Source of the DNA: Staphylococcus phage vB_StaM_PB50
Direction: 5' to 3' (one strand)
Length of the DNA: 64,000 nt
Sequence record: OR770614.1
Positions 13,027 through 64,000 of this stretch are shown in pieces; the stretch's first letter is position 1, and each line of letters begins with the position of its first letter. The notes beneath the pieces are model-generated. The model was not told the origin of the DNA. It saw only the letters and a list, made by a program, of their open reading frames with translations, and did no database searches. Position numbers and translations under genes: made by a program.

Positions 13027-13129
13027 TGTTCCTAATGAGATTCGAACTCATAACCTACAGATCCATAAATTATCCTATCCAGGTATAATTCATAAAATCC
13101 GTACACTCTGACCATTGAGCTATAGGAAC
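13027..13129 (-). tRNA. tRNA-Lys(TTT)-like gene with a 31-nt insertion in the anticodon loop (possible intron-containing tRNA or pseudogene)
   Basis: Clean acceptor stem (GTTCCTA/TAGGAAC), D-arm (GCTC-AATGGTCA-GAGT), anticodon stem (TACGG/CTGTA), T-arm (ATGAG-TTCGAAT-CTCAT). The anticodon loop region is 38 nt, not 7 nt. Confidence 0.55.
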
Positions 13130-13136
13130 ATAGAAA

Positions 13137-13208
13137 CTGCTCTAGTTTGATTCGAACAAACAACCTCTTGATTAACAGTCAAGCATTCTACCATTGAATT
13201 ATAGAGCA
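13137..13208 (-). tRNA. tRNA-Asn (anticodon GTT)
   Basis: Canonical cloverleaf: acceptor TGCTCTA/TAGAGCA, D-arm ATTC-AATGGTA-GAAT, anticodon arm CTTGA-CTGTTAA-TCAAG, T-arm GTTTG-TTCGAAT-CAAAC. Confidence 0.8.
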
Positions 13209-14074: not shown

Positions 14075-14239
14075 AAGTTTTTTAGCTTGATCATTTTATT
14101 ATCTATATTTTACTATAGATTAGACTATATCTTATGAATTTAATCATTTCTATATTTAGTCGTTGGACAACTTTATTAAGTTGATGCTAGTTAGTTTTAA
14201 CATTCTAGCAATTAATAGAATTTATTGTGAGCATCTAAT
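14075..14239 (-). mobile_element. intron-like intervening element (conserved core family) splitting the beta-prime C-type gene in the bridge-helix region
   Basis: Contains family core TTAATTGCTAGAA...TTAACTAGCATCAAC...TTGTCCAACGACTAAATA...GATATAGTCTAAT in gene orientation. Flanking ORFs are contiguous in the beta-prime alignment (GSAGRALGTQEGG | SAFQTTVLD ~ GARKGLADTALKTAN | SGYLTRRLVD). Confidence 0.55.
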
Positions 14240-15055
14240 TTACCCACCTTCTTGAGTACCTAAAGCACGTCCAGCTGAACCAGCTGTCATAATATCACCA
14301 AACATATATAATTCTTCTGGATCAATTCCATCAGCTAAAGAACTCTTAGCAATACGTATTTTACTAGGATCAGCAAAATTTTTATTTGCTCCACGAATAA
14401 GAGCTGTTAATTTAAAGTTATTTTCAAAACTACCTCTTGATTTACTATCATAAATATCAAGATCTGCTAAACCTTCTAATTCTTCCTTACTTAACTTAAT
14501 TAATTCTTCTTCAATAGCACTAATAGCATTCAATTCTTCACCAGGAGTATTTAATGCTTTACCGTATTTCTCTAGTAATTCTTCTTTCTTTTGTTTAACT
14601 TTATCTGGAGCAACCATCATTGTAGTTGTTAAGCTAGAATTAATAAATCCTGCTATAGAGAAACCAAGCCATTGAAGTTTATCAATATACATATTCATAT
14701 CTTTAGTTGTAATAACGTCATTAAGTAATAAACTAGATAGTTCAGATTGTAGATTTCCTACACCTGATCCTCCCATATCTTTATTCATATATCCTATAAT
14801 AGGTCCTATTTTATTGTCTAATATAAATTTATTAAATATATATCTTCCAACTGTTGTTCTTTCATCTTTACTATTATAAACTAAATCTTTTTTAAGTTTA
14901 AATCTATCGCTAGGGTTAAACATTGGTTGTGTATTTTGTCTAAATGCAAATAATTCTTTAAGTTTATCAAGAGTAATATCTTCTTTTTTTATACTTAATA
15001 AAGTTGATATTTCTTTCTCAGATAAATCTTTTTTATCATAAGTCATATTAACCAA
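14240..15055 (-). CDS. RNAP beta-prime-like subunit, proximal exon or fragment (region up to bridge helix)
   Basis: C-terminal ELYMFGDIMTAGSAGRALGTQ resembles beta-prime EYFISTHGARKGLADTA (region F). Confidence 0.6.
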   Translation of the reverse strand: MVNMTYDKKDLSEKEISTLLSIKKEDITLDKLKELFAFRQNTQPMFNPSDRFKLKKDLVYNSKDERTTVGRYIFNKFILDNKIGPIIGYMNKDMGGSGVGNLQSELSSLLLNDVITTKDMNMYIDKLQWLGFSIAGFINSSLTTTMMVAPDKVKQKKEELLEKYGKALNTPGEELNAISAIEEELIKLSKEELEGLADLDIYDSKSRGSFENNFKLTALIRGANKNFADPSKIRIAKSSLADGIDPEELYMFGDIMTAGSAGRALGTQEGG

Positions 15056-18300: not shown

Positions 18301-18488
18301 CTAATAAAATTGGGGTAGTTAGACAGCTTTCATATAATTCACTAATTAAATCTACTAGAGGTTATACAGATGGTGGTAAAAAAGATGCTAATGACACATC
18401 TCTATATACTCCATTAGAACTACTTAACCCATATTCTAGTAGACATGCCGATGATCAAACATGGATAGTCGGCTTAAAAACTATTTAA
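15372..18488 (+). CDS. RNAP beta-like subunit, exon 1 or N-terminal fragment (GTG start)
   Basis: C-terminal part (SRHADDQTWIVGL) aligns with the bacterial beta region (HDDANRALMGANM); continued by two downstream ORFs carrying the next conserved beta blocks. Confidence 0.6.
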   Translation: MKYLNRLKNLKFYSISGYKIKAIDENIKDQKKNQLIIYKGFKENSFIEFLNSGILYYQNFKNIYTPRIYRTSNRKSRLITNISDYQQEIKSKSIKSYRVERNEKLFKGRNYIVDSSKFINLENKSLMTKNFKTVLDSIKNTYNNLNNPEEYENLLYVINVDGYNKSSQEAIRPNTKDFMSSLFMMIKNQEELPHKENQNVVALFVSIENGIMFKFDFKDYNKLNNRLRQRLRRAIDLNTQQMDTDEISNVEDDDNTEAIDSTIKKKSFNNVKDIDPIELQDNNKDEINQNIEDSKMEKISKKIDDTLRYIKSNDNIDMDINDEYNIAMIIEKELNDNNDLIDIDEDTLYNDVLDKNDSFKSIKRDIKNKSYIGDTALKNSKKILSLSKNQDEYLEKLEDFSFSEDSVIDREINENVNSINDEAINNVSSNDFDLSYMKKTFNKDFVNIMKSFNDKEEIPVFISKMNVEDNSDSQSLKNTVKVQFKSPDGINHNVKFDVPKIIDGKYLKLNGGKKVLTKQLMMYPIVKYRPDTVWITTNYNKFIIEKFGSKENSETEWLKKVIEDKQVLEYIKDKNDISIQKGNSSLINKEYLTSVLYNNLSKNILRFSKDDLIIDFNQRNLKKVISESKTLSEIDYDKDKYYPIGYNSNKSKLILSNTTESIIFKATKSNIESMNINITDYIIEQLEDNIDFSLIDKKFSKNIQASKTMAFSRVKITNKLIPTIVLLGFYKGLTSILDLYEVDYKFVKENERITIKDKKNKIKFQDGYLIYSTDKLRYDLLLSGLNTIPTSQYDFEEFNSETPYLEYFNDKFYSRNVGKGIKNALDLAMDPITEDVLRDLKLPETMVELLLLANTMLEDVTAREHNDMGIYRVRGPEQVNALIYKMIANAYKEYSDSYNNKNPKNISVKQDQLIKTIMEQPTVDEVSDLNPSLEIDKMTSVTFKGPAGRNNEQSYEPDIRSYSESMQGVLGISSPDSNKIGVVRQLSYNSLIKSTRGYTDGGKKDANDTSLYTPLELLNPYSSRHADDQTWIVGLKTI

Positions 18489-18626
18489 TTGCTGAAATTA
18501 CTTTAAAGTTAATCAGCATCAATCAAATTGTTCAACGACTAAATAATAGTTACTAATTATATAATTAGTAATGATATAGTCTCAACTATGTATAAAGTAT
18601 ATAGAAATAAGATAATGTCTCCACGT
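18466..18626 (+). mobile_element. intron-like intervening element in RNAP beta (approximate limits inferred from protein alignment; the ORF-to-ORF gap is 18489..18587)
   Basis: Core TTAATTGCTGAAA..TTAATCAGCATCA..TTGTTCAACGACTAAATA..GATATAGTCTCA. Joining HADDQTW to IGMTGTQAKHVIP recreates the beta motif HDDANRALMGANMQRQAVP. Confidence 0.5.
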
Positions 18627-19091
18627 ATTGGAATGACTGGTACTCAAGCCAAGCACGTAATTCCAACAAAAACTAATAGTAAACCATTAGTTGGATCTGG
18701 TGTTGATAAATCTTTAGCTTATCAATTATCAGATACATTTGCTTTTAAAGCTAAGCAAGATGGTAAAGTATTAAAAATTAATGAGAAAACTGGTTTAATG
18801 ACAGTGGAATATATCAATGGTGAAAAAGATATTGTTGATATATCTGAAAAATTAGCCAAAAACTCTAACTCAGGTTTTTATCAATCTAATAAACTTGATC
18901 CACAATTTAACGTAGACGACACTTTTAATAAAGGTCAAATACTTGCTAAAAATAATAATTTCTTTGCTGGATCTGGTAAAAATAATGATATTCAATTCAC
19001 TTCAGGTAAATTATCTAAAGTATCTGTAGCTAGCTCATATGGTATTATAAATGCCTTTCATTATAGTAATGTAATGTCAAAAAATTATTAA
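18588..19091 (+). CDS. RNAP beta-like subunit, exon 2 or fragment (KPLVGSG block)
   Basis: SKPLVGSGVDK (beta KPLVGTGME), AKQDGKVLKI, NSNSGFYQSN, ends AFHYSN-VMSKNY inside the conserved beta motif AFMPWNGYNFEDS. Confidence 0.65.
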   Translation: MYKVYRNKIMSPRIGMTGTQAKHVIPTKTNSKPLVGSGVDKSLAYQLSDTFAFKAKQDGKVLKINEKTGLMTVEYINGEKDIVDISEKLAKNSNSGFYQSNKLDPQFNVDDTFNKGQILAKNNNFFAGSGKNNDIQFTSGKLSKVSVASSYGIINAFHYSNVMSKNY

Positions 19092-19220
19092 TTGCTGAGA
19101 AATATTAAATTAATCAGCATCTCTATATTTATAGAGTTCAACGACTAAATATAATTATTCATTAATGCTAATGAATTTGATATAGTCTAATCTATTATAA
19201 AAATATAATAGCTAATATAA
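19080..19220 (+). mobile_element. intron-like intervening element in RNAP beta, second copy (ORF gap 19092..19220)
   Basis: Core TTAATTGCTGAGA..TTAATCAGCATCT..GTTCAACGACTAAATA..GATATAGTCTAAT. Flanks AFHYSN | (M)TYEDSSI recreate the beta AFMPWNGYNFEDSI. Confidence 0.5.
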
Positions 19221-19982
19221 ATGACTTATGAAGATAGTTCTATTATTTCTAGTAGTATGTCTGAAGCAATGTCTACTAAAGTTACTATGAAGAAAACAGT
19301 AAATATTCCATCAAACACAAATATTCAATATATAGTTAAAGAAGGTCAGAAAGTACGTACAGGAGATCCTTTAATGATATTTGAAACTTCATTCGATGAA
19401 GAAGGTATTGGTTCTTTATTAGATAAAATTGGTAGTGAATTTGAACAAGATATTCAAGATATAGCTAACCGAGCTGTTAGAAGTAAATATACAGGTAATA
19501 TTAAAAAGATTAATATTTATTATAATGATGATATTGAAAATATGACTGATAGTTTAGCTAAATTAGTTAATAATTACATTAAAAAATCAAATGATAAATA
19601 TAAAGAATATAAATCTGGAATTAAAAATAATAAAGAAACTTTACCTGGTATTGATGTAGATATCGCTGCAGTTGATAAAATTAATACAGAGAAAATTAAA
19701 GGGGAAAAAGTTGACGGAGTTCTTATTGAAATCTTCACTGAGTATGAAGATGATATGAGTGTTGGAGATAAAATTAGTTTCTATGGAGCTTGTAAAACTG
19801 TAGTTGCTGATGTAACTCCTCCAAATGAATCTCCTTATGCAGAATATAGACCTGATGAGGAAATCGAAGCTGTATTCTCTCCATTAAGTATTGTCTCTCG
19901 TATGACAGTTGATATTTACATGATGCTATTTACAAATAAAGCTTTAATAGAATTAAAACGTAAAGTAAAAGATATGATTTAA
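19221..19982 (+). CDS. RNAP beta-like subunit, exon 3 or fragment
   Basis: TYEDSSII (beta NFEDSIL), GDKISFYGACKTVVADV (beta GDKMAGRHGNKGVVSKI), SPLSIVSRMTVD (beta NPLGVPSRMNIG). Confidence 0.7.
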   Translation: MTYEDSSIISSSMSEAMSTKVTMKKTVNIPSNTNIQYIVKEGQKVRTGDPLMIFETSFDEEGIGSLLDKIGSEFEQDIQDIANRAVRSKYTGNIKKINIYYNDDIENMTDSLAKLVNNYIKKSNDKYKEYKSGIKNNKETLPGIDVDIAAVDKINTEKIKGEKVDGVLIEIFTEYEDDMSVGDKISFYGACKTVVADVTPPNESPYAEYRPDEEIEAVFSPLSIVSRMTVDIYMMLFTNKALIELKRKVKDMI

Positions 19983-46152: not shown

Positions 46153-46293
46153 CTTTTATTTAAATAGACTGTATCTTATTTGTTATTTAAACAAATTTCC
46201 TTATTCAGTCGTTGAACGTATATTAATACGATGCTGATTAGTTTAAACACTTCCAGCAATTAAAGGAATTTTACACGACCTAGAATTTTGATT
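46153..46293 (-). mobile_element. small intron-like element (conserved core family) in the DNA polymerase gene
   Basis: Core TTAATTGCTGGAAG..TAATCAGCATCG..GTTCAACGACTGAATA..GATACAGTCTAT. Joining the flanks gives PDVCTA|WNLDYDFP, matching the family B PDVITGWN..FD.PY. The exon side ends in U and the element ends in G. Confidence 0.55.
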
Positions 46294-46606
46294 AAGCCGT
46301 ACATACATCAGGTTTACTAATTTCATTAATATAATATAAAAATGCTTTTATAATTTCCATTTCAGATTCTAATTCATATATTTCAAATTCTAATCCTAGA
46401 TTACCAATTTTACTATTTTCATTATTATAAATATTATTTAAATCTTCTAACAGTTTACTTTTATTTTCCATAGTTTCTTTATAAGTATCTGTATCATATT
46501 TTAAAGCAAATGTTAAACATTTACGTTTACTCCAGTCAACAGCAGTTATAATATTAACTTCAGCCTCTGCTTTTTCTGGTTCAGGGACATTTATATTAAC
46601 TTTATA
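46294..46606 (-). CDS. family B DNA polymerase, middle exon (approximate limits)
   Basis: NVPEPEKAEAEVNIITAVDWSKRKCLTFALK resembles the T4 gp43 segment FPDPMKAEYEIDAITHYDSIDDRFYVFDLL as I recall it; SEMEIIKAFLYYINEISKPDVCTA is the pre-Exo II block. Confidence 0.5.
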
Positions 46607-47352
46607 CAATTGTATAAAGATTAGACTATATCTTTTAAATTCAAATATATTTCCATTTAAAATTTTTGTAAGTTTTACTATTTCTATAACCATTTGCAAC
46701 TGCTTGTATTCCTTTTCTATCTATATTTAATTCTTCCGCTGCAAATTTAGCACTTTCATATTCTTTTATAATTTTATCTGTTTCTTTATCTATTTGTGCC
46801 ACTGGTTTTCTTCTCTTTTTTAATGATTCTTCCATTTTATCAGTTTTATGAAGATTATTTTCTATAGCATGTAAATTATTTTCTAATACTGACATCCATT
46901 CTAAATTAGATAAATTATTATTTAATTTATTACCGTCAATATGATTAACTACATTTTTATCAATATCTTTATTTTCGATAAAATTCTCTGCAACTAAACG
47001 GTGTATTCTTCTTGTATGCTTCTTATTATTTTTATATAATTGAACATCTTCATAACCATTTTTATTTATTCTTGTCTTTAATACTCTTTCTTTAATAAGC
47101 ATTCTTTTATCTTTACCTTTTAAAGAATCATTATATACATATCTTGAAACCGATTTAACTTTACCAGTATTGGATATTTTATAGTAATTTTCAAAATCTT
47201 TAATGTCTTTCCATATTTCTTTCATTATTTTCCTCCTTTTATAAAGGAAGTATATTTGAATTATATTATTATATTTAGTCGTTGAACACTAAATTAGTGA
47301 TGCTGATTATTTTTAAACTTTTCAGCAATTAATAATTTTTTAATTGAGCTAC
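46607..47352 (-). mobile_element. intron-like element of the same core family carrying an HNH homing endonuclease ORF
   Basis: 5' part has core TTAATTGCTGAAAAG..TAATCAGCATCA..GTTCAACGACTAAATA followed by SD and HNH ORF. 3' part has GATATAGTCTAATC. Interrupts the polymerase just after Exo I. Confidence 0.6.
46641..47225 (-). CDS. HNH homing endonuclease (NUMOD4-like N-terminus plus HNH_3)
   Basis: WKDIKDFENYYKISNTGKV; HRLVAENFI...NHIDGNKLNNNLSNLEW HNH motif; strong SD AAAGGAGG. Confidence 0.8.
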   Translation of the reverse strand: MKEIWKDIKDFENYYKISNTGKVKSVSRYVYNDSLKGKDKRMLIKERVLKTRINKNGYEDVQLYKNNKKHTRRIHRLVAENFIENKDIDKNVVNHIDGNKLNNNLSNLEWMSVLENNLHAIENNLHKTDKMEESLKKRRKPVAQIDKETDKIIKEYESAKFAAEELNIDRKGIQAVANGYRNSKTYKNFKWKYI

Positions 47353-47844
47353 CTAAATTAACCCAACTGTTTGCGAAGAATCAACTTCTATATCAAAGAA
47401 AACTATATCAATTCCAACTTTACTATCTAAGTTTTGTTTGATATACTCATTAATATTATAATCTTCAATATTAATATCAGATCCATGAACATTATTCATT
47501 AAATGAAAATCTTTTAATTTTCTAAACTCTTCATAATTACCTGAAGATAATATTCTATCGTATTCTGATTTATCTTGAGCATTACCTGCTTCTCTAACTA
47601 TAGATTTAATAACATCTTTATGTTTACAGTGTACAGTTCTAACTTTTTCTTTAGCCATAGAACCTACAACTATATTAGGTGGTAACCAATGTTCATCTTT
47701 AGTTACATAATAATGCATCATAGGATCTACTATTTCCATATGTTTCTTAGTTCCATCTTCTTCTTTGACTACCATTACTACTTTTTCTTTTTTATTAGAT
47801 GTTTCTTTTTTATTCAAATATGTTGATTTTATAAAACGACCCAT
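47353..47844 (-). CDS. family B DNA polymerase, first exon (Exo I motif)
   Basis: GIDIVFFDIEVDS (Exo I FDIE). Confidence 0.65.
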   Translation of the reverse strand: MGRFIKSTYLNKKETSNKKEKVVMVVKEEDGTKKHMEIVDPMMHYYVTKDEHWLPPNIVVGSMAKEKVRTVHCKHKDVIKSIVREAGNAQDKSEYDRILSSGNYEEFRKLKDFHLMNNVHGSDINIEDYNINEYIKQNLDSKVGIDIVFFDIEVDSSQTVGLI

Positions 47845-57135: not shown

Positions 57136-57822
57136 TTACCTAAAGTTTTTATTTACTAAATAGTTTTTAATTTCTTTCTCATCTTTAATTTCAATAAATT
57201 TCTTACTGAAATTTAATATATTATAATCTTCTAATGTACCATCTTTATACTTCGAGAAATTTTCTAGTTTTATTTTATTCTTATTTTCTTCAAATTCTTC
57301 TATAATTTCTTCATTAATTACATAAAAATCAATATCATCATTTTCAATTTCTTTTAATACCGCTTCAAACATTTCACTAAAGAAAATCTGATCTTCTTCT
57401 TTATAATCATATTCAAATTTAGGATAATTTTCATATTTAAATAATTTCCGGTTATAAAATAAGTTTCTTACTTTTGTGAAATTTCCAACACTTTCAAATT
57501 TATTAAGAGTTGCAGCTGTAGGTGTAAGTTTAATATTAATTATAGCTTCATGATTAAGCTTCAACCGAATAGTCAATTCTATGTGTTTTATTCTATACAT
57601 AATGTTATTGTGATTAATTACAATGAAACTTCCAGTCATTCCTTGATGTCTCAATATATAGTCGTCTTTTGTATATTTTTCATGCTTCACTAAGTATAGA
57701 TTATCATCCACATAGTTAATAAATGAAAAAGATCTAATATATTTTTCTATACCATCTTTTGCTTCTATATATTTTCCATTATCTATATTTTTGTATAATT
57801 TAAAATCAATCATATTATTCAA
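57136..57822 (-). CDS. tandem paralog family member 6
   Basis: C-terminal FIEIKDEKEIKNYLVNKNFR. Confidence 0.6.
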   Translation of the reverse strand: MNNMIDFKLYKNIDNGKYIEAKDGIEKYIRSFSFINYVDDNLYLVKHEKYTKDDYILRHQGMTGSFIVINHNNIMYRIKHIELTIRLKLNHEAIINIKLTPTAATLNKFESVGNFTKVRNLFYNRKLFKYENYPKFEYDYKEEDQIFFSEMFEAVLKEIENDDIDFYVINEEIIEEFEENKNKIKLENFSKYKDGTLEDYNILNFSKKFIEIKDEKEIKNYLVNKNFR

Positions 57823-58450
57823 AACCTTTCTTGACTAAGTAATTTTTAATTTCCTTTTCATCCGTTACTTCTTTAAATAGTTCATCTATAATATTTAAAT
57901 TATAGATTTCTTTTATATCCTCTTTACTTATTTTGTAATCATGAATATTGTCTTCGTTATTTAATGAAAAGACATTAAATGCAGAACCATTTTTATTAAA
58001 TATATCTCTAGTCAAGTATTCTTTAGCTCTGTCTAGTAAAGTTTTTCCTTCAGTATATATTTCTGTATCATTAAAATAAAATTCAATTTCACCTTCTCTA
58101 GATACAAAAGGTCCTATTTCACAGTGAACTTCTTTTTTTGAAAACGCTGGAATATCTAATACAAAACTAAATTCATATTGACCATCATTTTTATCTACGA
58201 AAAGATCAAATTCATTTACATAAAAAAGATTATTCATATCATAACCGAATCTTAGAATTAGACCATCCATAGAATTTATCCAAAGACGAACATTTTTAAC
58301 ATCATAACCAGTACAGCCTGGATGTTTGAAAAATTGATCAAAAGATATATCAAATAATTCTTTTCTAGAAAGACTCTTTTTATCAATGAAACTATATTCT
58401 AAAATATCAGATACATATAATGATTCATTCATTTTAATTACCTCTTTCAT
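57815..58450 (-). CDS. tandem paralog family member 7
   Basis: C-terminal FKEVTDEKEIKNYLVKKGFE. Confidence 0.6.
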   Translation of the reverse strand: MKEVIKMNESLYVSDILEYSFIDKKSLSRKELFDISFDQFFKHPGCTGYDVKNVRLWINSMDGLILRFGYDMNNLFYVNEFDLFVDKNDGQYEFSFVLDIPAFSKKEVHCEIGPFVSREGEIEFYFNDTEIYTEGKTLLDRAKEYLTRDIFNKNGSAFNVFSLNNEDNIHDYKISKEDIKEIYNLNIIDELFKEVTDEKEIKNYLVKKGFE

Positions 58451-59064
58451 TATTTAAAATTTTTTTCTACTAAATATTTTTTAATTTCTTTTTCATCTTC
58501 TAGTTTTCTAAAATATACATGAGGTTCAAATATATCAATACCATTTATAAAGATTTTAGTATTTCCATCAACATTTTCTTCTTTAAGCATTTTGTCCAAC
58601 AAATTAGACAATGTATCTAAATTATTTTCGTATTGATTATAACCCATAAGATCTTTTTCATAAAAATCTTTTACCATTGTTATAGCAAGACTATTTGAAA
58701 TAGTATCATCTTCTAAAAATTGTATCTGAGTATCTCTATTAATATAGGTTTCTAATTGTAATGTTACTTCATTATCTTTAATTTTTACATATGAAAATTC
58801 TAAGGCTTCTACTGGAAGATTCTTTCTAATCCCATTATATATATTACTGTAATATATATTTTCACTATCAATTAAATCAAAACGTAAATTTCTATTATAA
58901 TAAAGATCATCATTTAAACTAGGGTAATAATCTAAATTTCTTTCCATTAACTTTTTATAATAGAATTTATTTATTTTATCATTAATATCATTTTCATCTT
59001 TACCAATTATAAAAAGCTCATTAATATCCTTATTGTAATAAAATTCATTCTCTTTTAAAATCAT
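58450..59064 (-). CDS. tandem paralog family member 8
   Basis: C-terminal FRKLEDEKEIKKYLVEKNFK. Confidence 0.6.
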   Translation of the reverse strand: MILKENEFYYNKDINELFIIGKDENDINDKINKFYYKKLMERNLDYYPSLNDDLYYNRNLRFDLIDSENIYYSNIYNGIRKNLPVEALEFSYVKIKDNEVTLQLETYINRDTQIQFLEDDTISNSLAITMVKDFYEKDLMGYNQYENNLDTLSNLLDKMLKEENVDGNTKIFINGIDIFEPHVYFRKLEDEKEIKKYLVEKNFK

Positions 59065-59156
59065 ATCTTTTCCACTCTCCTAATTAAATTAATATAGAGA
59101 TAATGAATCATATTAATTCATTATCTCATTTTTATAATATATATTTAACACATATT

Positions 59157-59834
59157 TCATCTAAATCCTTCTTTAACTAAATAATTCTTGAATTCTTTAT
59201 CAGTAGCAACTCTAAATAAGTTTTCATTGTGTAAATTGATATCTTTTAAACTATAATATTTTCCATCAATTAAAAACTGTATATCTTCATATTTATTTAA
59301 TTCAGTTATTATTTTTAAAAATTCTTTTTTAAACTTTTCAATTGATAAGTGAAATTTAGGACACCTTTTACCATCAAAATCTGATAAGCTTACTAATTCT
59401 TTTGTTTTAACCTTAAGTGTATTCTTTTTGTTATTCATACCTAAATTTTTTCTTTTCATCATATTAAATTCATATAGTATTTCATCTTCTAAATAACTAT
59501 TATCTTTCTCTTTAGATATAATTTTTAATTCAGTAGAAGTAAATGATAAACCGGCAAAATTAGTTGTATGGTCATTCATATTCTGATAATAACTTATTTT
59601 AATATCTTTATAATCATTAAAACCTCTTAGTTTTAATTTACAATCAATTTTAAATGATATTATATTTTCAAAATCAGGATTAGCATTATTCGTTAATAAT
59701 CTCATCATGTTAACAACATTTACTTTCTCAATATATTCTCTATCATTATTATATTTATCTTTATCTATTCTCGTAAAATAATTATTTTCTATATCTTTGG
59801 TCGCTTTATATAGATCAAAATCATAATTTTCCAT
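59157..59834 (-). CDS. tandem paralog family member 9
   Basis: C-terminal RVATDKEFKNYLVKEGFR. Confidence 0.55.
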   Translation of the reverse strand: MENYDFDLYKATKDIENNYFTRIDKDKYNNDREYIEKVNVVNMMRLLTNNANPDFENIISFKIDCKLKLRGFNDYKDIKISYYQNMNDHTTNFAGLSFTSTELKIISKEKDNSYLEDEILYEFNMMKRKNLGMNNKKNTLKVKTKELVSLSDFDGKRCPKFHLSIEKFKKEFLKIITELNKYEDIQFLIDGKYYSLKDINLHNENLFRVATDKEFKNYLVKEGFR

Positions 59835-59836
59835 TA

Positions 59837-60022
59837 TTATTCTTCTCCTTTTAAGATTCTTTCCATTTCTTCTTTAGAAACTTTCTCTCCTATAATTGGA
59901 CCTTTTATTTTTTTCTTGTCTTTATTTTTCTCTCTGTATAATTCTGCATCAATTTCCCATTTTTCTTGTAAAGTCAATTGTTTACTTTCATTTTTTCTAA
60001 TTTCTTTTCTCATATTTATCAA
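59837..60022 (-). CDS. small K/E-rich hypothetical protein
   Basis: 61-aa ORF. Confidence 0.35.
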   Translation of the reverse strand: MINMRKEIRKNESKQLTLQEKWEIDAELYREKNKDKKKIKGPIIGEKVSKEEMERILKGEE

Positions 60023-60027
60023 TCCCC

Positions 60028-60519
60028 TTATCTAAAATGATTTCTAATTTTAAAATCTTTTACTTCTTTACAATCTTCTGAGATTATTTCAAATATATCT
60101 TCATTATCAAAATTGAATTTTTCTAATGGAATATTATAATGTGCCATATTTATATCTATCGCATAACATAATCTTTTATAAAATAAATAATAAAGATCAA
60201 TTGAAGAGTCTGATATGACAAGATTTTGGTTTGTTAAATCTATATTTTTAGGTATAAAAGGAATACTATTAAGATCCCAAGAAATGTTTGTAGTTAAATG
60301 AAGATTAATAAAACCGTAAAGTAAGAAAAACTCCAATTTTATAATTCCTACGTCTTCATCATATAAATCAATCTTTTTACCATAAGATCTATAAAAAGAC
60401 GAATTCTCTTTTTTAAATTTATTTCCAAATACATAATAAAATGCATCATCTTTTCTATGAATATCATTAACTTCATATATTTCGCCATTTACTTTATTTT
60501 CGTAATATATCATATCCAC
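60028..60519 (-). CDS. tandem paralog family member 10 (near-duplicate of 61247..61729)
   Basis: MIYYENKVNGEIYEVNDIHRKDDAFYYVFGNKFKK; C-terminal EDCKEVKDFKIRNHFR. Confidence 0.6.
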   Translation of the reverse strand: MDMIYYENKVNGEIYEVNDIHRKDDAFYYVFGNKFKKENSSFYRSYGKKIDLYDEDVGIIKLEFFLLYGFINLHLTTNISWDLNSIPFIPKNIDLTNQNLVISDSSIDLYYLFYKRLCYAIDINMAHYNIPLEKFNFDNEDIFEIISEDCKEVKDFKIRNHFR

Positions 60520-60529
60520 TTACACTTCC

Positions 60530-61231
60530 TTATTTAAATTCTTCTTTAATTAAGTAATTTTTAATTTCTTCCTCATCAGTAATTTCTTCAGCAATAAATT
60601 CCAAATTCCATCTTAGATAATCCATAAAATACATATACGAATTGTCGATCTTAATTCTAAGGTCCTTTAATATATAATATATCAATTCATCTAGAGAATC
60701 ATAAACGTCATTATTCTTATCAGACAAATAATCTTGTTTGAAACTAACTTTAAAATGTACTTCATTTTTATCCATTGTACAAGAAGATATTTTATATTTA
60801 TCACTTTTATATTTATCTAGCATACGAATTATTTTCTTAGCCTTTTTTGTATTTAAAACAATTTGAAATATATTTTCATAAATTCCATCATTATCTGTAT
60901 TAGAATCAGAGAAACAAACAATTGAAGATGAAATATTTCTTTCTTTATTTTCATTACTCTTAATTATTATATCTTCGTCTACTCCAATTAAATTTTTAAA
61001 ATTTATAATAATATCTGAATGTGTATAAAAATGAAAATTCAGTTGTTTATTAATTAAATAAGAGTTTCCATTGGTTGTAACGGGTTGGTCTTCATAATTA
61101 TAATATGGGTAAAAATTACTTTTTATCTGTTTCATGACTTTATAAAGAAATCTACCATTATTAATTTCATCTTTAGATAAAATAAATTTATTACCATTTT
61201 CTAGATTTTTATACAATTTAATATTTTCCAT
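60530..61231 (-). CDS. tandem paralog family member 11
   Basis: C-terminal IAEEITDEEEIKNYLIKEEFK. Confidence 0.6.
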   Translation of the reverse strand: MENIKLYKNLENGNKFILSKDEINNGRFLYKVMKQIKSNFYPYYNYEDQPVTTNGNSYLINKQLNFHFYTHSDIIINFKNLIGVDEDIIIKSNENKERNISSSIVCFSDSNTDNDGIYENIFQIVLNTKKAKKIIRMLDKYKSDKYKISSCTMDKNEVHFKVSFKQDYLSDKNNDVYDSLDELIYYILKDLRIKIDNSYMYFMDYLRWNLEFIAEEITDEEEIKNYLIKEEFK

Positions 61232-61246
61232 TTAAAATTTCTCCTT

Positions 61247-61729
61247 TTATTTAAAAAGATTTCTAATTTTAAAATCTTTTACTTCTTTACAATCTTCTGA
61301 TAATATTTTAAATATGTCTTCATTATCAAAATTAAATTCTTTTAATAATATATTATAATTTAATAAAGGTATATCTATTGCATTACACATTCTTTTATAT
61401 AATATATAGTAAAGATCTTCTGAAGAATCAGATGAGACAAGATTTTGATTCTTTAAATCTACTAATTTAGGTGCAAAAGGATTATTATTATCATATTTCA
61501 TATGTGTAACTAAAAATAATCTAGATGAGTCATAATTTAATTGGAAGTTTAATTCTTTATGTCCTTTATCTTTATCAAATAAATCAATTTTTTTACCCAC
61601 TGATTCATATAATTCCATTCTTTCTTTTTTAAATTCATTACCAAACACATAACAAAAAGCATCATCTTTTCTATGAATATCATTAACTTCGTATATTTCA
61701 CCATTTACTTTATTTTTGTAATATATCAT
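61247..61729 (-). CDS. tandem paralog family member 12 (near-duplicate of 60028..60519)
   Basis: MIYYKNKVNGEIYEVNDIHRKDDAFCYVFGNEFKK; C-terminal EDCKEVKDFKIRNLFK. Confidence 0.6.
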   Translation of the reverse strand: MIYYKNKVNGEIYEVNDIHRKDDAFCYVFGNEFKKERMELYESVGKKIDLFDKDKGHKELNFQLNYDSSRLFLVTHMKYDNNNPFAPKLVDLKNQNLVSSDSSEDLYYILYKRMCNAIDIPLLNYNILLKEFNFDNEDIFKILSEDCKEVKDFKIRNLFK

Positions 61730-61746
61730 TATCTATTTCAACTCCA

Positions 61747-62367
61747 TTATTTAAAATTTTCTTTAATTAAATATTTCTTAATCTTATCAATATCTTTTTC
61801 TTCATTATTTTCTAATTCATTTATATTCCTACCATTTAATAACAAATCATAACCTTTATCATTAAATTTTCTTTCTAAATCGTATAAGTATCTAATTACA
61901 ATATCAGAATATTTTAAATGAAAATCATTTTTATCATAATTAAAAATAGAAATTGTTACATTATTGATTTCTTTATCATCTACTATTAAATTTATATAAT
62001 CAACATCTGATATAAGTTTTTTATATCTATCACTTTCTATTTGTTTTTCTTCATTATCATAAAACAATCTTATGCCACTTGTATATTCATTTAACTCATT
62101 TTCTTGTTTTTCAGAAAAAATATCTATTGACAAACTAAATTGAAATTTTATATTTTCACATATCAATTCAAGATTATCAAGAGAAATATTTATATCTAAT
62201 CTCTCTAGACCTAAATTTAGAAAATTATCTTCCTTGATACGATCTACATCAATATGCAACATTCCTATCAAGTCTGTAATATTTCCTTTAATTTTATCTT
62301 TATAGATTTGCATTAATCTATCATCCATTTTAAAATACCTATAATCATTAATATTCAAAATAATCAC
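61747..62367 (-). CDS. tandem paralog family member 13
   Basis: C-terminal EKDIDKIKKYLIKENFK. Confidence 0.55.
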   Translation of the reverse strand: MIILNINDYRYFKMDDRLMQIYKDKIKGNITDLIGMLHIDVDRIKEDNFLNLGLERLDINISLDNLELICENIKFQFSLSIDIFSEKQENELNEYTSGIRLFYDNEEKQIESDRYKKLISDVDYINLIVDDKEINNVTISIFNYDKNDFHLKYSDIVIRYLYDLERKFNDKGYDLLLNGRNINELENNEEKDIDKIKKYLIKENFK

Positions 62368-62442: not shown

Positions 62443-62475
62443 ATAAGAGTAACGATCTATATTAGACCGTTACTC
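62443..62475 (-). terminator. terminator hairpin AGAGTAACG-loop-CGTTACTCT after the beta-prime N gene
   Basis: 9-bp inverted repeat directly after the mini-exon stop. Confidence 0.55.
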
Positions 62476-62485
62476 TGAATTTTTA

Positions 62486-62521
62486 AATTATTCTTTAGTT
62501 AAAGAATATAAAGCTTGTACC
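62486..62521 (-). CDS. RNAP beta-prime N-type gene, terminal mini-exon (MVQALYSLTKE)
   Basis: VQALYSLTKE aligns to beta-prime DVVLGLYYMTR, which directly follows the block ending the previous exon (..PSQ); 11 codons then stop. Confidence 0.5.
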
Positions 62522-62644
62522 ATATATTTATGATAATTAGACTATATCTTATGATATTTAAATCATTTTCATATTTAGTCGTTGAACAACTTTTATTAAG
62601 TTGATGCTGATTAATTTTGTTTTTCCAGCAATTAATGAAATTTA
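62522..62644 (-). mobile_element. intron-like element (core family) in the beta-prime N gene, copy C
   Basis: Core TTAATTGCTGGAAAAAC..TTAATCAGCATCAAC..GTTGTTCAACGACTAAATA..GATATAGTCTAAT between ..FVCSQ and (M)VQALYSLTKE. Confidence 0.55.
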
Positions 62645-62778
62645 TTGAGAGCATACAAACTTACTCTCATTACCAACTCCACGTATACTATTTCCTGTGT
62701 AGTTTAAGTAATTAGTTTTCTTATTAATAAGTTTATCAGCTTCTTTATTTGCTTCTACAGACCATAAAGAGCGTATTG
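62645..62778 (-). CDS. RNAP beta-prime N-type gene, exon (DMISIRSLWSVEANKEADKLINKKTNYLNYTGNSIRGVGNESKFVCSQ)
   Basis: Aligns with beta-prime [41 protein letters not shown], immediately after the NADFDGD motif. Confidence 0.6.
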
Positions 62779-62937
62779 AAATCATATCCATTTTATATAC
62801 ATGTATTTACATATAATTAGACTATATCTTCTTTAGTAATATATTTAGTCGTTGAACAACTTTTATTAAGTTGATGCTGATTATCTTATAGATTTTCCAG
62901 CAATTAATATTATTTAATGATGGTAATATAAAATTTT
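62779..62937 (-). mobile_element. intron-like element (core family) in the beta-prime N gene, copy B, inserted within the catalytic NADFDGD motif
   Basis: Upstream exon ends ..YAQALGADFDG; the next exon begins D-MISIRS. The element ends ..AAAATG immediately before GATATGATT. Confidence 0.55.
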
Positions 62938-63129
62938 GCCATCAAAATCTGCACCAAGTGCTTGAGCATATGAATTGTGTATGATTGCAGTATCTAAGAA
63001 AATATCTTCATCAACAGGATACTCTCTTACTACTTTAGGGTAATCTTTTAATACTATATCATCTAAAATTATTTCTGGAATAGTATCAACAGTAGTTAAT
63101 ATTTTAATTTTAGCAGGTGCTACGTTCAA
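62938..63129 (-). CDS. RNAP beta-prime N-type gene, exon ending in ADFDG (catalytic loop)
   Basis: HNSYAQALGADFDG matches the HPLVCAAYNADFDGD context. The listed ORF uses a TTG start and runs on into the element (KILYYHH stop). Confidence 0.55.
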
Positions 63130-63300
63130 GAAATTTTCGCATTTATTATATTTATATAAGTATTATATAAATTAGACTATATTATATACTATTAAATAGT
63201 ATCATTGCATTTAGTCGTTGAACAATTATATTTAATTGATGCTGATTAACTTTATTAATAGTATTTCAGCAATTAACAATATTTATCAACTTAAATCACT
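63130..63300 (-). mobile_element. intron-like element (core family) in the beta-prime N gene, copy A
   Basis: Core TTAATTGCTGAAATAC..TTAATCAGCATCAAT..TTGTTCAACGACTAAATG..AATATAGTCTAAT between SRYPINKMVAA (NRAPTLHRLGI) and the next exon. Confidence 0.55.
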
Positions 63301-64000
63301 TTAAGCAGCGACCATTTTATTAATCGGATATCTTGAATACATAACATGCTTATCTTCTACTATTTCGGTTGCAGCAATATAAAGTAAATCAATTACAGTA
63401 AAATCTCTACCCAAAGTTTTTTCAAATAATTTAACTTTATGGCGTTTACCTTCTCTATCATTTACATATATAGGACTAAATCTTTCATTAGGATCTTTAA
63501 TAAAGAATTCTAGCATATTCTTAATAGATTTATCATCGAATTGTTCATATACTTCTTCTAATGATAATTCTTTCTCATCATTTCCAGTAGCTGTTTGGAA
63601 AGCATCTTTATGAAGTTCAATAAAATCAATTATATACTTATTAAAGAATGGTAAGAATAATGTAACTAACTGAGTTAATGGTACACCTAACTCACCAAAC
63701 TCAATTTGCATTTCATCCCATTTATTCGAATTAATTTTAGGTGAAGAAATAACAGCACGAGTACTATTATCTACCGTTTTACCCAATATACGTTTTTGCA
63801 TAAAACCAGTTTTACCTGATAATTCTCCTGAAGTAAATTTCTGATATATTTCAAATAATGTATTTTGTATATTATATTTAGTACTGTTAGCAATAAAACC
63901 AAAAGAATTAAAACTAATGGCATCTACAGAACGTATAATAGAAGAATACATATTATTAACTTCTTCAGTATCTTGAATTTCTCCTGAAGTTTCATTAGGA
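63301..64000 (-). CDS. RNAP beta-prime N-type gene, proximal exon (partial; continues beyond the window end)
   Basis: GFMQKRILGKTVDNSTRAVISSPK matches beta-prime NLLGKRVDYSGRSVIVVGP; YSRYPINKMV matches LNRAPTLHRL; the frame is open upstream to position 64000. Confidence 0.7.
   Translation of the reverse strand, partial: PNETSGEIQDTEEVNNMYSSIIRSVDAISFNSFGFIANSTKYNIQNTLFEIYQKFTSGELSGKTGFMQKRILGKTVDNSTRAVISSPKINSNKWDEMQIEFGELGVPLTQLVTLFLPFFNKYIIDFIELHKDAFQTATGNDEKELSLEEVYEQFDDKSIKNMLEFFIKDPNERFSPIYVNDREGKRHKVKLFEKTLGRDFTVIDLLYIAATEIVEDKHVMYSRYPINKMVAA

Follow-up and report, generated by a model that had tools for sequence, protein, structure and literature searches.

Compact introns of probable group I type interrupt the virion RNA polymerase beta' gene of a Staphylococcus jumbo phage

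Within essential phage genes, group I introns typically sit where conservation is highest, in the parts that code for the active site. One of the closest described cases is gene g145 of Bacillus phage AR9, which, together with its introns, was reportedly described by Lavysh et al. in 2016. This gene, for the N-terminal part of the RNA polymerase beta' subunit (beta'-N), has been discussed as invaded by both intron classes (PMC12350094 Fig. 5A). In the phages MarsHill, Madawaska and Machias, many genes, including those of RNA polymerase subunits, are 'intron-disrupted', with exons predicted from protein alignments and the introns left unclassified (Korn et al., bioRxiv 10.1101/2020.12.14.422802). 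Jug gut phages carry an average of 18.5 group I introns per genome, of about 206 nucleotides (nt) and mostly without an open reading frame (ORF), which fragment essential genes; splicing was confirmed for 37 of 76 by metatranscriptome reads (PMC12880540). Here, we analyse 64,000 nt of Staphylococcus phage vB_StaM_PB50 (OR770614.1; this whole stretch is called the window, and coordinates are window positions), in which the beta'-N gene is interrupted by three insertions, I1 (183 nt), I2 (149 nt) and I3 (142 nt). From their sequences, we consider it very probable that these are compact, ORF-less group I introns in a single-copy gene and that they are spliced at the RNA level.

The locus occupies the right-hand end of the window (G+C content 24.5%) and is encoded on the minus strand; the gene is partial here, as it runs past the window end at 64000. 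By BLAST, the nearest relatives of the window belong to a jumbo-phage clade made up of S6, PALS_2, DC4, SA1, MarsHill, Madawaska, Machias, AH12 and LY01, and the beta'-N stretch is 97% identical to that of Machias. The host gene is identified as the N-terminal part of the virion RNA polymerase beta' subunit by the annotations of Machias and of AR9 g145. A tblastn search with a provisional joined protein found the region uninterrupted in S6, PALS_2, DC4 and SA1; in Machias, AH12 and LY01 it fell into two or three pieces.

Junctions were set by aligning the window DNA with the uninterrupted S6 and SA1 genes, plus Machias and AH12. The window differs from the empty S6 and SA1 gene by three clean insertions (Table 1), and the predicted spliced junctions are CCGAU/CGAAAA, GAUGGC/GAUAUG and GAGAGU/GUACAA (slashes mark junctions). 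An earlier note on this DNA had described two of these elements and missed I1 in the same gene. The empty site fixes the I1 junction to within one base, and the final nucleotide comes from the terminal-G rule given below; the resulting placement, CCGAT/T...AAATG/C, has a U-ending exon, a G-ending intron, the peptide PIENF as in S6 and a phase-2 join (CCG AT/C GAA). An early version of this junction, ...INKMV/ENF, was ruled out by the S6 and SA1 empty site.

At the I2 site, S6 and SA1 are continuous (GCAGATTTTGACGGT/GATATG). Sequence and alignment bear out the earlier reading that the exon ...YAQALGADFDG ends at 62938, that the insertion ends ...AAAATG and that the next exon opens GAT ATG ATT (D-M-I-S-I-R-S); its expectation that excision rebuilds ADFDG-D agrees with the continuous S6 and SA1 genes. 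The element in the catalytic motif is thus present as described, with its span corrected from 62779-62937 (159 nt) to that in Table 1. In-frame I2 junctions with a U-ending exon were also tried and rejected, because each would either remove the Gly from DFDGD or put the reading frame out of register. At the I3 site, S6 reads GGTAACGAATCG/GTACAAGC, and exon 3 of the window therefore ends GAGAGT (...GNES); by the S6 and SA1 empty site, the true 5' junction is GAGAGT/AAGTTTG. The downstream element had been placed at 62522-62644; it exists, but its 5' end was put 18 nt downstream of the true position. The junction proposed with it, FVCSQ/VQALY, and a likeness to PSQD do not stand, because the empty site shows KFVCSQ and its stop to be intron read-through, and the likeness is coincidental. 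Likewise, what had been taken for an 11-codon mini-exon between two elements is exon 4, which has 10 codons plus a stop and is terminal, after the third intron. Mini-exons between two elements do, however, exist in relatives of the phage.

Table 1. Features of the beta'-N locus and related elements (window positions unless another phage or contig is named).
Feature	Position	Strand	Length	Remarks
Exon 1 (partial)	63323..64000	-		ends ...YSRYPI (CCGAT/); 87.6% identical to S6 coding sequence S6_0550
Intron I1	63140..63322	-	183 nt	compact, ORF-less, probable group I; absent from S6 and SA1; core 63171-63283
Exon 2	62938..63139	-	202 nt	...ENFLNVAPAKIKIL...YAQALGADFDG
Intron I2	62789..62937	-	149 nt	between G and D codons of ADFDG/D; core 62816-62914
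Exon 3	62663..62788	-	126 nt	DMISIRSLWSVEANKEADKLINKKTNYLNYTGNSIRGVGNES
Intron I3	62521..62662	-	142 nt	100% identical to Machias 115618-115759; core 62536-62642
Exon 4	62488..62520	-	30 nt + TAA	VQALYSLTKE (10 codons); terminal exon after I3
Terminator-like hairpin and T-rich tail	62446..62476	-		14 pairs; 0 expected in shuffles
Intron A	46588..47360	-	773 nt	DNA-polymerase-like gene (FDIEVD exonuclease motif); I-HmuI-like HNH/NUMOD4 ORF 46641-47225
Intron B	46153..46294	-	142 nt	ORF-less; same gene as A
Intron C	19044..19223	+	180 nt	orthologue of 1417-aa S6_1000 gene
Intron D	18453..18617	+	165 nt	same gene as C
Intron E	14092..14241	-	150 nt	orthologue of 408-aa S6_1010 gene
Guide-GCC(C) sub-family	LY01 131457-131633, 137548-137727, 138059-138242; window 19044-19223			
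Example array of compact cores	metagenome contig L028 3926-5087			from the set L028-L063

With the insertions removed, the ORF is continuous (...YSRYPIENFLNVAPAKIKIL...YAQALGADFDGDMISIRSLWSVEANKEADKLINKKTNYLNYTGNSIRGVGNESVQALYSLTKE, then a stop). The joined product reads ...RYPIENF...GADFDGDMISIRS...GNESVQALYSLTKE and ends GNES/VQALYSLTKE before the stop codon. Its expected junction-spanning peptides are ...YPIENFLNVAPAK, ...ALGADFDGDMISIR and ...GVGNESVQALYSLTK; unspliced polypeptides would end ...GKILYYHH or ...KFVCSQ. The joined product passes the Pfam model RNA_pol_Rpb1_2 (PF00623) with 27.7 bits (cut-off 25.3) over residues 279-315, which span the I2 junction. It aligns with Mycobacterium tuberculosis beta' through both the ADFDG/D (I2) and GNES/VQALYSLTK (I3) junctions, and its continuous GADFDGD aligns with the NADFDGD of solved beta' chains, as the earlier note had anticipated for a reconstructed protein. 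The exon 4 peptide is kept at the C-terminus of the S6, SA1 and LY01 genes and aligns with beta' ...VTGLYYLTT. We conclude that the gene ends at VQALYSLTKE, because a terminator-like hairpin of 14 base pairs (bp) follows, 12 nt past the stop codon; the S6 and SA1 coding sequences stop at the same place. The same end point, and the division of beta' into N and C genes, had been predicted from this DNA before: every relative has the end of the gene at this point, and 'beta-prime, N-terminal' is the name used in the records of Machias and AR9.

Several lines of evidence identify the insertions as group I elements. Blocks common to I1-I3 are AAUUGCUGRAAA, AAUCAGCA, GUUCAACGACUAAAU and (A/G)AUAUAGUCUAAU. 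A 15-mer of the core occurs at 11 window sites with three or fewer mismatches (3.07 expected; 0 of 100 shuffles reach 11), eight of them with at most one mismatch, and compared with 77 kb of syntenic S6 DNA, the eight introns of the window are each a clean insertion into a gene. The Rfam model RF00028 scores I2 at 32.6 bits (E 3e-6), I3 at 27.8 (E 8e-5) and I1 at 21.9 (E 5e-3); its alignment matches AAUUGCUGGAAA, AAUCAGCA, GUUCAACGACUAAAU and AAGAUAUAGUC to the consensus segments J3/4-P4, P6, J6/7-P7 and J8/7.

The secondary structure, comprising P3, P4, P6, P8 and the P7 pseudoknot, was written by hand and its pairs were counted on alignments. When the seven compact copies of the window were aligned with MAFFT, 98.9% of cells were paired, against 27-49% in slid controls, and 16 of 26 pairs were changed on both sides; none of 500 shuffles reached these values. 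Compensatory changes are present in every counted helix (P3, P4, P6, P7 and P8). For example, P3 occurs as UUUCAU with AUGAAA, AACUAUU with AAUAGUU, or AUUCCUU with AAGGAAU, and the P7 pseudoknot swaps GACUA with UAGUC for GACUG with CAGUC. A covariance model (R1) built from this alignment gave E-values of 1e-13 to 1e-16 for the window copies (I1 96.2, I2 89.9 and I3 100.3 bits). It found 49 cores: 8 in the window, 34 in the complete LY01 genome and 7 in the Machias and AH12 loci, with no core in the S6 segments searched. Across 47 distinct copies, 98.4% of cells were paired (slid controls 24-48%), and the J3/4-P4, J6/7-P7 and J8/7 segments were invariant. The catalytic segments of the cores are intact, including the G-binding G-C pair of P7 beside its bulge, J8/7 (AAGAUAU), J4/5, J6/7 and the terminal G.

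The ends of the elements also follow recognizable rules. All eight window introns end in G (63140 in I1, 62789 in I2 and 62521 in I3), and in seven of the eight the 5' exon ends in U, paired with a guide G; I2 is the exception. This U-and-G rule is kept at twelve more LY01 junctions resolved against S6. The I3 guide (62646-62652, GCUCUCA) pairs with exon UGAGAGU over 7 bp as P1, with a U.G pair, and the adjoining P10 pairs 62653-62662 (AAGUUUGUAU) with the 3' exon GUACAAGCUU over 10 bp. In I2, the guide 62918-62924 (ACCAUCA) pairs with the 5' exon UGAUGGC over 7 bp, and 62925-62931 (UUAUAUU), contiguous with P1 on the guide, pairs with the 3' exon GAUAUGA over 7 bp as P10. The P1 of I1 has 4 bp (CGAU with GUCG), including a U.G pair, and is conserved in LY01. 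The group I sequence, the covarying structure, these splice-site rules and the intron-free alleles uphold the suggestion, already made from this DNA, that the pieces are joined at the RNA level.

The splice-site pair of I2 is C.A. At the identical site, the LY01 homologue of I2 has an exon ending GACGGU, the guide GCCGU and a U.G pair, whereas in the window, Machias and AH12 the exon ends GAUGGC, the guide is ACCAUC and the pair is C.A. A neighbouring C-G pair in LY01 is replaced by U-A in the window, a compensatory change. The change from U.G to C.A is an isosteric wobble swap that keeps the geometry, and an engineered c-A pair at the splice site allows accurate splicing in a Tetrahymena-derived construct (PMC11417360). 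These observations support the P1 assignment of I2. The natural C.A wobble is the clearest unusual feature of I2; literature searches for natural C.A splice sites, or for a published lower size limit of natural group I introns, gave nothing usable.

Under group I splicing, each intron would fold in the transcript into a core made of the P3-P7 pseudoknot, P4-P6 and, where present, P8, and its 5' internal guide would form P1 with the last bases of the exon before it and P10 with the first bases of the exon after it. P7 would then bind a free guanosine, which would attack the 5' splice site, and the freed 3'-OH of the exon would attack after the terminal G of the intron, ligating the exons. The outcome would be one mRNA encoding joined beta'-N. 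We infer this chemistry, and likewise any need for a helper, from sequence features.

Several observations weigh against this account. All three introns score under the RF00028 gathering threshold (50 bits); at that threshold none of the eight window introns is reported, and the whole window gives tRNAs only. Folding is weak (-17 to -24 kcal/mol; z-scores -0.9 to -2.9). I2 has no P8, which is replaced by the 6-nt linker CUAAAG, and its 5' splice site has C instead of U; I3 has neither a P5 stem (a 14-nt A-rich loop closes P4) nor a P9 hairpin. Taken by itself, the 4-bp P1 of I1 does not exceed chance, as 1746 of 2000 random exon 10-mers pair over at least 4 bp, and the placement of the I1 junction to 1 nt depends on the terminal-G rule. 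In addition, splicing in vB_StaM_PB50 and its close relatives is a prediction from sequence. Note that the low RF00028 scores follow from the missing P2, P5, P8 and P9, and that the 50-bit threshold is a curation cut-off, not a biological criterion. The Rfam default threshold also reports none of the 34 cores of LY01. The reductions recur: a 5- to 6-nt linker (CUAAG) stands in place of P8 in 10 of 46 compact cores, spread over three phages and over different genes, and 19 of 47 cores have no stable P5. I1 has a P2 hairpin and a P9 hairpin, and the minimum-free-energy fold of I2 recovers P4/P5, P6, P7 and P9. Introns without an ORF are 142-183 nt long in the window, and those of LY01 about 140-190 nt.

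Whether the introns would act alone is less secure than that they are group I introns. Because of the C.A pair and missing P8 of I2, the missing P5 and P9 of I3, the low G+C content and the weak folding, we rate autonomous self-splicing, as opposed to protein- or chaperone-assisted splicing, only somewhat above an even chance. The main competing explanation is that the elements are derived from group I introns but are not autocatalytic, and that their splicing strictly needs a phage or host cofactor (a maturase or chaperone) that recognizes the near-identical shared core. We regard this as a serious minority possibility. The frequent loss of P8 and P5 just described would fit it, as would the lack of peripheral tertiary-contact elements and the weak folding of RNAs with 19-25% G+C, and the invariance of P4, P7 and J8/7 in 47 copies would suit a single shared protein partner. 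Circumstantially, MarsHill, Madawaska and Machias form no plaques at 37 C (Korn et al., bioRxiv 10.1101/2020.12.14.422802). It is pure speculation that weakly folding, A+U-rich ribozymes in essential genes contribute to this failure. On the other side, every catalytic-core segment is intact, a candidate cofactor was not identified, and phage group I introns cut down by engineering to about 180 nt reportedly keep activity (Doudna and Szostak). A cofactor requirement refines the explanation by group I splicing, as it leads to the same joined mRNA.

It is very unlikely that beta'-N is instead truly fragmented or a pseudogene, with the pieces translated separately or not at all. The RNA polymerases of jumbo phages are already split among several genes, and the AH12 and LY01 records annotate the beta'-N exons as separate hypothetical proteins. 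However, the catalytic DFDGD would then be divided between its Asp residues, the last piece would have only 10 residues, LY01 would have internal pieces of just 14 nt and 9 nt, and the fragments lack ribosome-binding sites. The exons, moreover, remain 84-88% identical to the intron-free S6 gene. By tblastn, there is a single place for the beta'-N protein in each of Machias, AH12 and LY01, and thus no intact back-up copy in these three intron-bearing phages, which were isolated as viable, plaque-forming phages. Translational bypassing, which the earlier note had kept as an alternative and in which ribosomes would hop over the 142-183-nt elements in the manner of T4 gene 60, is scarcely credible: coding does resume in frame-compatible pieces, and I2 and I3 end in an in-frame AUG, but none of the three gaps has matched take-off and landing codons, I2 reads GGC, AAA ... 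AUG GAU with no stop directly after the take-off codon, the gaps are three times longer than that of gene 60, the phase-2 join of I1 would not come from hopping, and the covarying ribozyme core, the guide pairings and the terminal G would be left unexplained.

The window contains five further introns (A to E in Table 1), and a homing-endonuclease ORF is found only in A among all eight; I1-I3 have no ORF beyond short read-through, so no intron-encoded homing endonuclease. The DC4 paper names S6_1000 as RNA polymerase beta and S6_1010 as RNA polymerase beta' (PMC10638138). Pfam gave no match for S6_0790, S6_1000 or S6_1010, the other intron-bearing host genes, and their names are taken from that paper or from the FDIEVD motif. 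At the site of intron A, LY01 has a 142-nt ORF-less intron.

LY01 is 80-86% identical to the window at the beta'-N locus, and its orthologous gene has five introns (OR836606.1 176199-177561), four of them compact and one of 384 nt that belongs to a different group I type. With these removed, the LY01 ORF is continuous (...GALGADFDGDMISIRS...GNESVQALYSLTKE, then a stop). In the stretch coding for GALGADFDGD, introns leave exons of only 14 nt and 9 nt (UUUGACGGU, coding F-D-G). The exon before the 384-nt intron seems to end in G. A further compact intron is present in AH12, 15 nt upstream of I2 (2523-2720 of the AH12 locus segment). Its 5' junction is ambiguous: an exon ending GGC would give GADFDGD and a second C.A pair, and one ending GGCU would give GSDFDGD and a U.G pair.

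I1-I3 would probably have spread through endonucleases acting in trans or by reverse splicing. A retron-type reverse transcriptase was rejected as a route: by tblastn, it is found in all nine Staphylococcus jumbo phages, and the link to the introns was dropped because these include the intron-free S6, PALS_2, DC4 and SA1. A sub-family with the guide GCC(C) sits at GGU/A sites in different RNA polymerase genes, and two of these sites read GGU/ACUCAAG (G-T-Q motifs). This suggests ectopic spread to look-alike sites, either by reverse splicing or through an endonuclease of relaxed specificity. Close relatives carry sharply different numbers of introns: the I3 sequence matches at 27-32 places in Machias, AH12 and LY01, at 9-12 in MarsHill and Madawaska, and nowhere in S6, PALS_2, DC4 or SA1, despite 80-95% exon identity in the clade. 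Elsewhere in the window, a tRNA match at 13027-13129 (minus strand; Rfam 52.5 bits), whose anticodon loop contains an insertion of 34 nt, adjoins tRNA-Asn (13137-13208); ARAGORN did not call it, and it may be intron-containing or degenerate. Just downstream of the beta'-N gene, at 57815-62367 (minus strand), lie tandem paralogous ORFs of about 160-230 amino acids with the shared tail ...E(E/K)EIKNYL(I/V)K(E)xF(K/R), which S6 has too.

Compact cores of this kind are also found in metagenomes. The compact-core pattern had no matches in 185,579 bacterial and archaeal genomes; it was found at 36 metagenomic loci, mostly human-gut contigs, of up to 393 kb. Within those loci (254 kb in all, from contigs of 130-393 kb), the covariance model found 153 compact cores, often arrayed every ~200 nt, and 95.2% of cells were paired across 79 distinct copies (slid controls 34-50%). 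Some of the core-bearing gut contigs, of 371-393 kb, fall in the size range of Jug genomes and may come from such phages. Such arrays might explain fragmented genes in gut phages. Yutin et al. detected introns via endonuclease domains, and ascribed disruptions of Zeta-group crAss-like RNA polymerases, 'within...the DxDxD motif', to 'yet unknown expression mechanisms' (PMC7886860). ORF-less compact introns are a candidate explanation for these disruptions.

Precedents exist for the type of element, for its placement in an active-site motif and for its abundance in jumbo phages. Intron disruption of beta'-N has already been published or annotated for AR9 and Machias, and published for the Jug phages. 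What appear to be new are I3, which is unannotated in the Machias record, the natural C.A pair of I2, and cores that have no P8 or no P5. We suggest tentatively, and hold it to be less probable than its converse, that the window introns are among the smallest functional natural group I ribozymes (140-183 nt), with members that have dispensed with P8, P5 or P9, a C.A splice site in I2, endonuclease-free spread to about 30 copies per genome and LY01 exons down to 9 nt, and that such introns may explain gene fragmentation in gut phages. If self-splicing, introns of 142-149 nt without P8, or without P5 and P9, would help to define the minimal natural group I ribozyme, and could serve as very small scaffolds for RNA circularization. 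A simple compact-core covariance model detects the arrayed gut-phage copies and may help to resolve fragmented genes. For annotation, the Machias protein carries six intron-encoded residues and its true C-terminus is missing.

Among known systems, the window is closest to Machias, whose gene CPT_Machias_117 is 97% identical over its length and whose I3 is 100% identical. Its record (MW349128.1) joins three pieces, which amounts to removing I1 and I2, with boundaries 'predicted based on alignment'. The difference is that its coding sequence ends ...GNESKFVCSQ, with the last exon missed (locus segment 2689-2811). AR9 g145 is an orthologous gene, about 40% identical and annotated as a three-piece join. 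It has a group I intron in the catalytic motif at DYD/GD, 3 nt from the DFDG/D site of the window, whose core shares the segments CUGCUGG...UCAGCA and UCAACGACUA with the window introns. The other AR9 intron lies three codons from the I1 site, but is of group II (RF02004 80.7 bits, RF00029 55.2 bits). Both AR9 introns are large and endonuclease-bearing, whereas those of the window are short (142-183 nt), ORF-less and at other exact positions. The Jug phages differ in their hosts (Bacteroides/Phocaeicola rather than Staphylococcus) and belong to another phage lineage, and the introns of the window are shorter than theirs.

The classical phage group I introns (T4 td, nrdB and sunY, the SPO1 and SP82 DNA polymerase intron with I-HmuI, Twort orf142 and nrdE) are about 250-1000 nt long and have full P5, P8, P9 and peripheral elements. 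They occur a few per genome, as against 34 compact cores in LY01. Intron A of the window shares with this group an I-HmuI-like HNH/NUMOD4 endonuclease. The tRNA introns of Azoarcus and Anabaena (about 205 and 249 nt) are commonly cited as small ribozymes, and resemble the window introns in having a minimal architecture that does without P5abc and in the logic of J8/7 and P7. They keep P2, P5, P8, P9 and tetraloop-receptor contacts and are G+C-rich, whereas the window introns are shorter by 20-60 nt and very rich in A+U, and individual members lack P8, or both P5 and P9. In T4 gene 60, too, one protein results from skipping a coding gap within an essential phage gene. Its gap measures 50 nt, its matched codons are GGA and no ribozyme is involved; none of its defining features is present at the gaps in the window.

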